64,000 nucleotides of DNA from positions 3,534,001-3,598,000 of the forward strand of contig JANJGN010000034.1 in assembly GCA_026770705.1 (NCBI GenBank), written 5' to 3'. Of the stretch, positions 2,169-63,240 are shown in pieces. Source of the DNA: Isurus oxyrinchus (lineage: Eukaryota). A model generated the notes under the pieces. The model was given only the letters and a program-made list of their open reading frames with translations, had not been told where the DNA came from and made no database searches. The number at the start of each line of letters is the position of its first letter. The first letter of the stretch is position 1. The translations under genes were made by a program, and so were the position numbers.

Positions 2169-2230
2169 CTAATTTACATTTCTGACGAATAGCAGAGGAA
2201 ACAGAAGGTATGCCTTGTGGCTAATTTGAG
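2169..2230 (-). CDS. Candidate terminal coding exon with two possible acceptors (EM* or [20 protein letters not shown])
   Basis: Acceptors ccttctttaag (exon starts 2230) and tttcctctgctattcgtcag (exon starts 2181); minus-strand AATAAA at 1615-1620. Confidence 0.4.
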
Positions 2231-61700: not shown

Positions 61701-63240
61701 TGCAAAGAGTACTAACATAATGACAACTCACAAAGCAATTAAGAGTCCACTTACAAAATATCACCTTACCACCCTTAATGGGACATTCAGACTATTGACC
61801 AAACGTTTGGTTCAAGAGTTGCTTTTCTTGGTAGAGGCAAGAGGAGTGAGAAGTGCTGTGGAAGTTACGTTGGAGAGTTGCTGCGGTCCATATGTTATCT
61901 CGGCCACGTTCTGCCAGTATATGCATGTGTTGGACGTACTGACAGTCTAAGGGTGAGGATGGGGATGCCGTTCCAGTGGACTCAATTGCTCAAGGTTAAG
62001 TCCTGAATGCTTGTGCCACTGTACTCATCCAAATGGGTGGTAAGTAACTTTTGGACATGTTTTGGGATGTCAGGAAGTGGCTTCTCGCTGCTGTATTTAC
62101 AATCTCTGGTTTCCTGTTTCATCCATTGTATTGTATGGCAAATATAATTTTCTGATTCATTGCACAATTCAGAATGTGAGTAGTTGGCGCATTAGATTGG
62201 CTACCGTCAATGAATGTGAAGAAGAAATGAAAAGATGTTGCATCGTTGGAGAGGGCCATTTTATGGTATTTGGGTCATTTTCGTATTATGTTTCACTTTG
62301 CATCGCAAGCAGGATATCGAACTGGATGGAAAGCTATTGATGAGGAATCTGAAGAAGATTTTTTTTAAAGAGCATTCAGGAAGTTCTCCAGTAGCAATAT
62401 GTTTGCTTTGACAAGATTTGCTTCTTACAAGAAACATTTTGCTTAGAGCACGGTACTCGTGCTTGTCTGCTCACTGATTCCCAGTTACTTTAGATTTGTT
62501 TGAGCTCCTTGATCCGATATTCGGTCAATAGTCATATGATGTTGATGACAGTCACTCTCACAATGTCTCTGGAGTTCAGCCCTTCGCCCTTTTTTTGACC
62601 AAGGCTGCAACCATTGTAGGATTCGATTGGAACTGTTGGAATCCAATCCGAACATCAGTGAACAAATACCAATCTCACTTGTTAAATGAGTGTCTGTTGA
62701 AGTTACACTTGTGTTGTTTGCCTTGAACCACAGTACTTTCTGAGGTTCATCCAGCAATTTGCCATAGGATGCAGCAGTTGCTCTGCAAAATGGTTTCATA
62801 TGTTCCATGTAATCATTTGAACGGCTTCAAAATCACAATTGACTGACATCTGTATTGCTAGGGACGACAAGAAGAGGCAACATTTATTCATCAAATAGTC
62901 ACCTCAAGCTTGATGATTGTCGCTAACCTTTCAGGCCTGACTTTTCACAACTTTGCAGAGATCGTTCATCATTGTATGTACTTGGGCAGCATCATTTATT
63001 CTTTTTATTTGTTTGTTTGTTGTACTTTACGACAACATTTACGACAACGTAACCAAACTGCAATCTTCTGCAACGATATAATTGGAGGGTAATTCATGAA
63101 ATTATCAATGTTATCTCTTTTACGCCCTAACAGATTTTCATTAGCGAATGTGTCATTGCATGTGATGATCAGTTGTTTTTGCACATATTCTCTCTATGGA
63201 ATGTCAACAATACCTTTCTCTTTTTCTTTTAACTTTTCCT
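2174..63240 (-). CDS. Partial multi-micro-exon gene (5' end outside window) encoding a long 21-aa-periodic coiled coil
   Basis: 23 AG..GT-bounded phase-1 exons splice in frame to [234 protein letters not shown]. The end of the CDS is uncertain. Confidence 0.85.
2408..2434 (-). CDS. 27-nt micro-exon (DQVKNEHVS)
   Basis: tttccacctcgtgtaccaacag|ATCAAGTCAAGAATGAACATGTTTCAG|gtaagg. Confidence 0.75.
2950..3750 (+). mobile_element. Highly degraded CR1-type RT fragment
   Basis: [12 protein letters not shown] and xxKCxVxHxG-like remnants with many stops. Confidence 0.5.
4439..4660. mobile_element. Palindromic Penelope-derived element with probable target-site duplication
   Basis: ~90-bp inverted arms matching the terminus of the element near 41700-41790; flanked by aattttata at 4430-4438 and 4663-4671. 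Confidence 0.8.
6471..6620. repeat. (CA)n-rich microsatellite
   Basis: Visible CA runs. Confidence 0.95.
6700..6735 (-). CDS. 36-nt micro-exon ([12 protein letters not shown])
   Basis: cttttctgtgacttag|AATTATCCACGTGCCACAACTCGATAAAAGAATTAG|gtgagc. Confidence 0.8.
8458..8484 (-). CDS. 27-nt micro-exon (EKKLEEKGI)
   Basis: ggttctgtacaatag|AAAAAAAGCTGGAAGAGAAAGGCATAG|gtaact; splice sites resemble those of the exon at 27711. Confidence 0.8.
   Translation of the reverse strand, partial: KKSWKRKA
8803..9040. repeat. (CA)n-rich microsatellite
   Basis: Visible CA runs. Confidence 0.95.
9121..9156 (-). CDS. 36-nt micro-exon ([12 protein letters not shown])
   Basis: cttttctgtgacttag|AAATATCCAATTGCCTGAACTTGATAAAAGAATTAG|gtgagc. 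Confidence 0.8.
10038..10064 (-). CDS. 27-nt micro-exon (EDAIRGLNR)
   Basis: cttgtttgtttcaaatag|AGGATGCAATACGTGGACTAAATCGAG|gtaggt. Confidence 0.75.
10478..10513 (-). CDS. Possible 36-nt micro-exon ([12 protein letters not shown]), not counted among the 23
   Basis: catcctacattctcag|GATTTACAGTCAGGGATATAATTAAAAACGAAGAAG|gttaat. Length, phase and position fit, but the donor is weak and the peptide is unlike the other 36-nt exons. Confidence 0.3.
11900..13650 (+). mobile_element. Old CR1-type LINE (ORF1 remnant and endonuclease region)
   Basis: ARSIxxxxDEL-like start of the APE domain near 12615, YRPP motif near 12907, DHNMIEF near 13195; decayed. Confidence 0.65.
13654..14520 (-). mobile_element. 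Younger CR1-type LINE 3' fragment inserted antisense into the older copy
   Basis: [31 protein letters not shown] and LEYCEQF motifs; ataagaccataagac tail. Confidence 0.9.
14530..15190 (+). mobile_element. Old CR1-type RT region
   Basis: VPxGxVLG, YINDL and YAxDTR (YADD-like) remnants. Confidence 0.7.
15240..15860 (+). mobile_element. Degraded CR1/L2-clade LINE 3' fragment
   Basis: [37 protein letters not shown], the RT C-terminal motif. Confidence 0.65.
18555..18572 (-). CDS. 18-nt micro-exon (EAVKAK)
   Basis: TACTAAC branch point (18595-18601), then atattacag|AAGCGGTAAAAGCCAAAG|gtaggg; phase 1-1 and open. Confidence 0.6.
19380..21130 (+). mobile_element. Degraded CR1-type ORF2
   Basis: HDMIEI, FLSVFT, DKSxxP and [16 protein letters not shown] remnants. 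Confidence 0.65.
21900..22560 (-). mobile_element. Degraded CR1/L2-clade LINE 3' fragment
   Basis: Reverse-complement similarity to 15240-15860; related decayed pieces recur in the tandem units. Confidence 0.6.
22760..23480. repeat. G-rich interspersed element, unclassified
   Basis: Abrupt G-rich strand bias between LINE fragments; its ORFs are low-complexity. Confidence 0.4.
24318..27200 (-). mobile_element. ~2.9-kb degraded CR1-type ORF2 (endonuclease to 3' tail)
   Basis: [10 protein letters not shown] (endonuclease), [18 protein letters not shown] (RT) and a taagaacttaagaa tail. Confidence 0.85.
27711..27737 (-). CDS. 27-nt micro-exon (EKKTDEAAK)
   Basis: ggttctccataatag|AAAAAAAGACGGACGAAGCAGCCAAAG|gtaaca. 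Confidence 0.8.
28071..28106 (-). CDS. 36-nt micro-exon ([12 protein letters not shown])
   Basis: tttcttctgttgttcag|AATTGGCCGCCTGCCAAAACTCTTTAAAAGCAATAG|gtgagt (consensus donor). Confidence 0.85.
30232..30258 (-). CDS. 27-nt micro-exon (EVILKDKEA)
   Basis: tttttgacattcag|AGGTGATTTTGAAAGACAAGGAGGCAG|gtacgt. Confidence 0.85.
31087..31585. other. N gap
   Basis: Run of N containing four called bases. Confidence 1.
32907..32942 (-). CDS. 36-nt micro-exon ([12 protein letters not shown])
   Basis: gctttaattgtag|AGTTAGCAAGGGTGAAGAAAAATCTCGCAACTACAG|gtatgc. Confidence 0.85.
34761..34787 (-). CDS. 27-nt micro-exon (DERLEGQGK)
   Basis: tttctctccctcag|ATGAAAGGTTGGAGGGGCAAGGGAAAG|gtactt. Confidence 0.85.
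37036..37071 (-). CDS. 36-nt micro-exon ([12 protein letters not shown])
   Basis: ttgttataatcgcag|AATTAGCAAATCTGAAGAAAAATCTCCAAAATACAG|gtgcgc. Confidence 0.85.
38592..38618 (-). CDS. 27-nt micro-exon (ESMLKDKEG)
   Basis: tttctcacccacag|AGTCAATGTTGAAAGACAAAGAGGGAG|gtactt. Confidence 0.85.
39459..39606. other. N gap
   Basis: Run of N. Confidence 1.
40290..41790 (+). mobile_element. Penelope-like element 3' part (RT C-terminus, GIY-YIG endonuclease, terminal repeat)
   Basis: [26 protein letters not shown] and [31 protein letters not shown]; contains stops. Confidence 0.9.
41955..42300 (-). mobile_element. tRNA-derived SINE
   Basis: Homologous to 45660-46000; tRNA-like head remnant at the right end, LINE-like tail at the left. 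Confidence 0.6.
42586..42621 (-). CDS. 36-nt micro-exon ([12 protein letters not shown])
   Basis: gctttaatggcag|AATTAGCAAGCCTGAAGAAAAAGCTCGATGCTGCAG|gtgcgc. Confidence 0.85.
44441..44467 (-). CDS. 27-nt micro-exon (DGRLDEHGK)
   Basis: tttctccttctcag|ACGGAAGGTTGGATGAACATGGGAAAG|gtactt. Confidence 0.85.
45660..46000 (-). mobile_element. tRNA-derived SINE
   Basis: gagggcatatcagagtcaacc..ggagtcacgtgtaggccagaccaggtaag core; same family as 41955-42300. Confidence 0.6.
46231..46266 (-). CDS. 36-nt micro-exon ([12 protein letters not shown])
   Basis: gttttaattgcag|AATTAGCAACGCTGAAGAAAAATCTCGAAACTGCAG|gtgctc. Confidence 0.85.
47779..48919. mobile_element. Large inverted repeat formed by two Penelope 3' ends
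   Basis: Two ~570-bp arms centred near 48360; the right arm resembles 41220-41790. Confidence 0.85.
50430..50456 (-). CDS. 27-nt micro-exon (ENKLEEQLK)
   Basis: tttttctccctctcag|AGAATAAGTTGGAAGAGCAATTGAAAG|gtattc. Confidence 0.85.
51276..52169. other. N gap
   Basis: Run of N. Confidence 1.
52803..52868. repeat. (TA)n microsatellite
   Basis: Visible. Confidence 0.95.
53239..53274 (-). CDS. 36-nt micro-exon ([12 protein letters not shown])
   Basis: gttttaatatcag|AATTGGCAAGCCTAAGGATAAATCTTAAAGATACAG|gtacac. Confidence 0.85.
54780..54806 (-). CDS. 27-nt micro-exon (EEKLKDTEK)
   Basis: ttcctccttctcag|AGGAAAAGTTGAAAGACACGGAGAAAG|gtagtt. Confidence 0.85.
55696..55862. repeat. (TATC)n microsatellite
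   Basis: Visible; degenerate counterparts near 35637 and 59755. Confidence 0.95.
57154..57189 (-). CDS. 36-nt micro-exon ([12 protein letters not shown])
   Basis: ctttctctttgattcag|AATTAGCAAGCCTGAAGAAAAATCTTGAAGTAACAG|gtgtgc. Confidence 0.85.
58889..58915 (-). CDS. 27-nt micro-exon (EEMQQAQGK)
   Basis: tttgtccctcttag|AGGAAATGCAGCAAGCACAAGGGAAAG|gtactt. Confidence 0.8.
60996..61031 (-). CDS. 36-nt micro-exon ([12 protein letters not shown])
   Basis: ttttaattgcag|AACTAGCAACTTTGAAAAAAAATCACGACGCTACAG|gtgtgc. Confidence 0.85.
63214..63240 (-). CDS. 27-nt micro-exon (EEKLKEKEK)
   Basis: tttctcgctctcag|AGGAAAAGTTAAAAGAAAAAGAGAAAG|gtattg. Confidence 0.85.

Follow-up and report, generated by a model that had tools for sequence, protein, structure and literature searches.

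Among the described systems closest to the locus reported here, enterophilin, which is of mammalian butyrophilin-family origin, carries a C-terminal B30.2 domain. The chicken BG genes are described as building a long coiled coil from numerous very small exons with split codons, which vary in copy number and are alternatively spliced, and the same account has the soluble BG tail displacing tropomyosin (PMC5938342). An interaction of enterophilin with SNX1 has likewise been described (PMC13749957), and loss of the RING is described as known in trim-like genes (PMC3137616). Here, we analyzed a 64,000-nucleotide (nt) stretch of DNA from the shark Isurus oxyrinchus (GCA_026770705.1, contig JANJGN010000034.1, hereafter C34; C34:3534001-3598000, forward strand), which we call the window and whose coordinates count from its base 1. 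A first-pass annotation had read from it a hidden micro-exon gene for a coiled coil with a period of 21 amino acids (aa). The exon array and its period-3.5 signal support that reading: the window holds a real micro-exon array, which is probably part of a giant coiled-coil and B30.2 gene from an apparently undescribed chondrichthyan family. We consider it reasonably probable that these exons form the central stretch of a single, very large gene encoding a soluble coiled-coil rod of ~1,100 residues with a B30.2 end.

Micro-exons in the window and along the locus

The minus strand of the window carries AG/GT-bounded, stop-free, phase 1-1 segments of 27 nt (type A, 9 aa) and 36 nt (type B, 12 aa). 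An iterated profile recovered ten 27-nt exons (45-70 bits) and eight 36-nt exons (37-85 bits), with runners-up at 3.6 and 14.4 and plus-strand maxima of 2.0 and 5.1, respectively. Scanning for splice sites and widening the profile added four more, giving 22 exons and 675 nt that contain no stop when read in frame (32 and 5 in the other two frames). With a further, less certain 27-nt candidate picked by eye (2408..2434, minus strand, strong donor), which is probably the 23rd exon of the first-pass annotation, the total reaches 23 exons and 702 nt, as had been claimed. The low end of the array had been placed at 2174, a coordinate ~230 nt off: no 18-, 27-, or 36-nt AG/GT exon ending there was found.

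More specifically, the A exons from the iterated profile are located at 63214..63240, 58889..58915, 54780..54806, 50430..50456, 44441..44467, 38592..38618, 34761..34787, 30232..30258, 27711..27737, and 8458..8484, and the B exons at 60996..61031, 57154..57189, 53239..53274, 46231..46266, 42586..42621, 37036..37071, 32907..32942, and 28071..28106, the last with a Cys at core position 5. The splice-site scan contributed a less certain 18-nt candidate (6 aa) at 18555..18572 and a 27-nt exon at 10038..10064; a B exon of the Cys type at 9121..9156 came from that scan and the wider profile, and another at 6700..6735 from the wider profile. All of them lie on the minus strand, where 2408..63240 would represent the middle part of the ~500-kilobase (kb) gene according to exon scans in and around the window.

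The two types alternate strictly over 17 exons (63240-27737, the final one being the A exon at 27711..27737), or 27 once upstream DNA is counted, with two weak candidates within the run (39894 and 64460) removed by hand. The unbroken 27/36 alternation that had been reported was thus recovered, and the 9+12-aa module holds locally; outside the neighborhood of the window, which is to say over most of the gene, AB, AAB, and AAAB runs are intermingled. Across 11 A+B pairs, Leu occupies positions 4, 11, and 18 in 10 pairs each and position 14 in nine, the latter being Leu, Val, or Cys in all 11, in agreement with the pattern first noticed. Hydrophobic power at period 3.5 was 6.2, compared with a shuffled 95th percentile of 0.5. 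A coiled coil ahead of the C-terminal domain, which is one criterion for TRIMs, is therefore seen at the sequence level.

The array extends far beyond the window. We examined 684 kb around it and ran an exon scorer over the first 564 kb, which yielded 113 candidates scoring >16 on the minus strand (88 of them of 27 or 36 nt) and 2 on the plus strand (none of these lengths), a strand contrast that is partly circular because 72 of these exons had served as training data for the scorer. The array runs on for ~377 kb upstream of the window and for ~55 kb on its downstream side, fades near 441,000 (upstream limit at window coordinate ~440,961, C34:3,974,961), and comprises ~113 exons for a coil of ~1,100 aa, so that the window covers about an eighth of the locus. 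Our working model assembles 111 exons (A, 69; B, 37; other, 5) into 1,105 aa over 485 kb, two further exons having been added later. In this model, 109 of 111 exons end in G; they are phase-1, split-codon exons like the heptad exons of butyrophilins and BG, but of 27/36 nt rather than 21; the proposed kinship to those exons is borne out in this respect. Cys takes a core position in 16 of the 37 B exons, introns are up to 26 kb long, and the exon types change gradually, without a break, along a single strand. The whole product is predicted at ~1,280 aa, and the coding share of the ~500-kb gene is under 1%.

The B30.2 terminal exon and the 5' end

A B30.2/SPRY terminal exon lies on the same strand at C34:3474636-3474116, ~59 kb below window base 1. 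It has 172 codons, a phase-1 acceptor, and a stop followed by AATAAA, and it matches Pfam SPRY (PF00622) with an E value of 3e-18 (66.3 bits; cut-off, 26.3). The earlier statement that no B30.2 exon occurs downstream is accordingly correct for the window but not for the gene, and an analogy with CD23 and C-type lectins was dropped because the terminal domain is SPRY. Among 93 matching PDB sequences, TRIM58 ranked best (E 6e-21), with BTN3A1 and TRIM21 also among the best. There is no Pfam PRY match on the exon, and the alignment to BTN3A1 covers its N-terminal portion from residue 5 on. The histidine of the BTN3A1 WHYC motif is a pocket residue for phosphoantigen sensing; in the alignment to 4n7i, the corresponding residue of the terminal exon is Ser. 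An ESM Atlas search returned generic SPRY clusters.

The link between the micro-exons and this exon comes from a Scyliorhinus canicula model (XP_038668997.1, "TRIM39-like") that is 72% identical over the B30.2 domain. The residues ahead of that domain match four AG/GT micro-exons of the Isurus locus in order (-21779, -23731, -26039, and -55555), and the model then runs into B30.2; the micro-exons would be joined to it in Isurus as well. Residues 77-118 of the same model also show a weak match (E 0.016) to window 217-342, which resembles a long interspersed nuclear element (LINE).

At the other end of the gene, tblastn of the 684 kb with 176 proteins gave no match to RING (62 queries with a RING motif) or to immunoglobulin (Ig) domains (16 queries with Pfam V-set matches), and no B-box exon was found in this region. 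In addition, RING, B-box, and Ig families were absent from all 76 upstream minus-strand open reading frames (ORFs) of ≥100 aa, a set made up of ORFs lying within 10-kb locus borders. Genome-wide, 150 of 3,319 V-set candidates were scored, with one hit on C34, at 13.07 megabases (Mb), which bears neither way on a local Ig exon. A look for signal peptide, IgV, and transmembrane (TM) exons past 64000 had been advised; inspection of the upstream DNA revealed no IgV and, between 441k and 480k, no convincing signal or TM exon by ORF listing, inverted-repeat comparison with the head-to-head paralogue, GC/CpG profile, or ATG-to-donor scans. To judge from the homologue isoforms, translation probably starts within a small exon.

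These results bear on whether the gene could encode a membrane protein of genuine butyrophilin or BG type, with a very large heptad tail in the cytoplasm and with Ig and TM exons that were missed. Butyrophilins are described with heptad exons followed by B30.2 (PMC8813856, PMC12841164) and BG tails as made of 21-nt exons (PMC5938342), and two paralogues of the gene lie 2-4 Mb from an MHC (major histocompatibility complex) class I cluster, all of which would fit. We nevertheless find this very unlikely, given the lack of Ig matches in the 684 kb and in the upstream ORFs, an opposite-strand paralogue that begins ~39 kb past the last exon found, and a B30.2 domain that groups apart from those of Ig-bearing proteins. 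A secreted or extracellular, disulphide-linked coiled-coil rod with B30.2 heads, structural or opsonin-like, appears quite unlikely. The core cysteines of the B exons would suit such a rod, as would the hydrophobic 17-aa stretch that forms the N-terminus of a Leucoraja homologue model (XP_055510696.1), but the Narcine, Scyliorhinus, and Callorhinchus models begin in polar coil sequence, and the gene's strand offers, between the head-to-head genes, a lone ATG/hydrophobic candidate with a weak donor (476461).

Tandem duplication, selection, and relatives in cartilaginous fishes

The strict 9+12 alternation arose because a ~4-kb genomic unit, made up of a single A exon and a single B exon with the introns that go with them, was duplicated in tandem. 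Sequence comparison places eight copies, ~65% identical, at 28793..63966. Profiles built only from introns, and applied outside their training set, detected 11 new sites, 4 of type A and 7 of type B; an intact exon was present at all 4 A sites and at 6 of the 7 B sites, the miss being a partial match 200 nt from another. This test is evidence for the exon array independent of the exon scorer. When neutral substitution was simulated at 15-20%, a single exon stayed intact with a probability of 0.42-0.31, and the probability for all 22 exons of the duplicated run was ~4e-9 to 4e-12.

Pooled over 10 repeat units, the ratio of nonsynonymous to synonymous substitution (dN/dS) was near 1 (A, 1.06; B, 0.73), which means that constraint on residues outside the core is for the most part weak. 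Selection maintains the splice sites, length, frame, and core leucines, and not most surface residues; the weak surface constraint may reflect relaxed constraint or mixed selection. In the coiled-coil tail of chicken BG genes, selection for variation has been reported (PMC5938342, PMC8813856). A dN/dS near 1 among repeats would also be compatible with decayed tandem repeats or a dead gene whose exon pattern is left over or selected by the search. This is extremely improbable, since splice sites, length, and frame are intact at 10 of the 11 sites located from intron sequence alone, the core leucines are invariant, and an intact B30.2 exon has an orthologue 72% identical to it.

A younger 2.4-kb duplication (82-84% identity) spans window 6180-9547; it contains the 36-nt exon in both copies (9121..9156 and, in copy two, 6700..6735) and the matching 27-nt exon in one. 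The introns of the window also contain LINE-like fragments (456-879, 13758-13916, and 24430-24875) and TA and CTAT microsatellites (52803-52897 and 55695-55889).

Of six further B30.2 exons of the same type identified in this genome, four lie on C34 (at 44-45% identity) and the other two on C21 (at 32-33%). In all five paralogues examined, 27/36-nt arrays precede the B30.2 exon on the sense strand, with sense/antisense candidate counts of 18/5, 23/2, 14/1, 14/4, and 14/1 (overlaps included). A search with the exon of one paralogue retrieved only ordinary TRIMs at 29-35% identity. The C21 pair (L066 and L067, at 89.72 and 91.35 Mb) is the one near the MHC class I cluster (93.6-100.3 Mb), and it sits among a large TRIM/B30.2 cluster (C21 82-118 Mb). 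Elsewhere on C21 (66,132,994-66,134,184, minus strand), MHC class I alpha1 and alpha2 matches ~660 nt apart fall in 845-aa open frames, apparently as one long ORF, whereas other class I matches are in short exon frames. The head-to-head paralogue on C34 occupies the plus strand from ~4,013,963 (window coordinate 479,963); it includes at least seven 21-nt true-heptad exons, the size of BG exons, at window coordinates 536,498-574,879, and would span ~800 kb if it reached the L062 B30.2 exon at C34:4,816,515. Of four sequence runs compared with L061, three are genomic contigs of a relative, which cross introns and contain no joints, and one gave no alignment; they have no bearing on expression.

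Homologue models are known from Narcine, Scyliorhinus, Callorhinchus, Leucoraja, and Cetorhinus, in keeping with the proposed restriction to one lineage. They are automatic RefSeq models (XP_038668997.1, XP_038672306.1, XP_069775384.1, XP_042191566.1, XP_055510696.1, and XP_078422387.1) named TRIM39-like, TRIM58, TRIM69-like, or A33-like, so the gene, which ORF-based annotation had been expected to miss, does not go wholly unannotated. SPRY was detected in all six (two also have a sub-cutoff PRY), RING, B-box, and Ig in none, and the maximum 19-residue hydropathy was ≤1.5 in the five measured. Segments of the models map to exon-bounded pieces in the Isurus oxyrinchus genome. Narcine, Scyliorhinus, and Callorhinchus each have an isoform pair differing by one internal 9-aa cassette, and 6- and 7-aa differences occur too. 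In a quick tree (66 rows, midpoint root, L067 absent), a long branch (SH-aLRT, a likelihood-ratio branch support, 100) separated all 13 chondrichthyan coil-plus-B30.2 domains from the 25 rows that bear a RING and the 8 that bear Ig. The chimaera member would place the origin of the family before the shark-chimaera split. No full-length long homologue was found among the database matches, in which long proteins can crowd out relatives, and no published description of the family was found in a search whose scope did not extend to subscription journals and supplements.

Architecture and comparison with known systems

In Isurus oxyrinchus, the exons would be spliced to one another and onto the B30.2 exon. 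The predicted rod would be a parallel dimer or trimer of up to ~160 nm if every exon is used, at the textbook coiled-coil rise of 0.148 nm per residue. Such an oligomer would hold at least two B30.2 heads together and may thereby bind a protein or pathogen surface avidly, by analogy with the B30.2 heads of TRIMs and butyrophilins, which bind protein ligands with avidity. Because no RING was found, the predicted role is that of a tether, adaptor, or decoy rather than that of a ubiquitin ligase. All exons are phase 1-1 and have lengths divisible by three, so that duplicating or skipping a unit would leave the reading frame unchanged. The heptad register would be preserved by an A+B pair (21 aa) and shifted by a lone 9-aa skip; duplication and splicing could in this way adjust both the length of the rod and its local register. 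We further postulate, tentatively but as something quite possible, that the family is a third B30.2 immune arm beside TRIMs and butyrophilins: multigene, RING-less, Ig-less rods of 9- and 12-residue modules, as old as the shark-chimaera split, and represented here by >110 micro-exons over 500 kb that encode a ~160-nm tether of combinatorial length and register.

Several observations, in addition to the dN/dS values, weigh against a single giant rod. The tie to B30.2 covers no more than the last four micro-exons and comes through the automatic model of a homologue, whose first ~120 aa look partly LINE-derived and suggest a faulty 5' end in that annotation. The scans described above did not find a start exon. 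The working model includes hand edits (five exons dropped, at 252342, 64460, 39894, 26670, and 24547, and two added) and one junction stop, at the doubtful exon 172293. In the 11 pairs, core position 7 holds a polar residue and position 21 a small one, so the coil is imperfect, and the homologue models are short (175-460 aa). The exons could be real and yet yield no single giant product, with internal promoters, alternative ends, and heavy cassette skipping giving shorter rods, or with more than one gene present. The homologue isoforms (202-460 aa, with differing first exons), the introns of up to 26 kb, and the frame-neutrality of all exons would accord with this. Still, we regard it as unlikely, given the continuous grading of exon types on one strand and a search of the 684 kb that detected neither a second B30.2 exon nor any other recognizable terminal exon; one long rod is favored.

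This gene would add an apparently undescribed, partly MHC-linked B30.2 family to the immune genes of cartilaginous fishes and would correct models currently named as TRIM E3 ligases. It also illustrates that a 500-kb gene with <1% coding sequence can largely escape annotation. As a natural system, it would help in understanding how 9- and 12-residue modules, neither of them whole heptads, hold register under duplication and splicing, and it bears on the shuffling of heptad micro-exon tails (BG and butyrophilin) and B30.2 heads in early jawed vertebrates.

Among known systems, the RefSeq chondrichthyan models share the B30.2 branch, consist of coil and SPRY only, and have 9-aa cassette isoforms; they differ from the ~1,280 aa predicted here in length, and their names imply E3 ligases while none of the six has a RING. 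Class IV TRIMs (TRIM39, TRIM58, TRIM21, TRIM69, and A33/NF7-like) have the coiled coil and B30.2 in common with the shark gene, which lacks a detectable RING or B-box and whose micro-exon-built coil is ~10 times longer. Butyrophilins (BTN3A1, BTN2A1, and BTNL3/8) likewise place a heptad region before B30.2, with PDB matches at E ~1e-20, but that region is short, and in the shark gene no IgV, IgC, or TM was found and B30.2 is on a separate branch. The likeness to chicken BG lies in the long coil from many tiny split-codon exons. BG genes are described, however, with 27-37 exons of 21 nt each (PMC5938342), compared with ~113 exons, mainly of 27/36 nt, here, and with signal, IgV, and TM exons in an account that mentions no B30.2 (PMC8813856), whereas the shark gene has B30.2 and no Ig or TM was found. 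Judged from its sequence, the gene would work like a BG tail or a TRIM coil plus a B30.2 head, yet it tested negative for RING/B-box and IgV. Guinea-pig enterophilins and the chicken BG-derived zipper protein are, like the predicted product, soluble long heptad rods; they come from mammalian or avian butyrophilin-family genes, have 7-aa units and far shorter rods, and are likened here by description only. Enterophilin would be the nearest architectural analogue.

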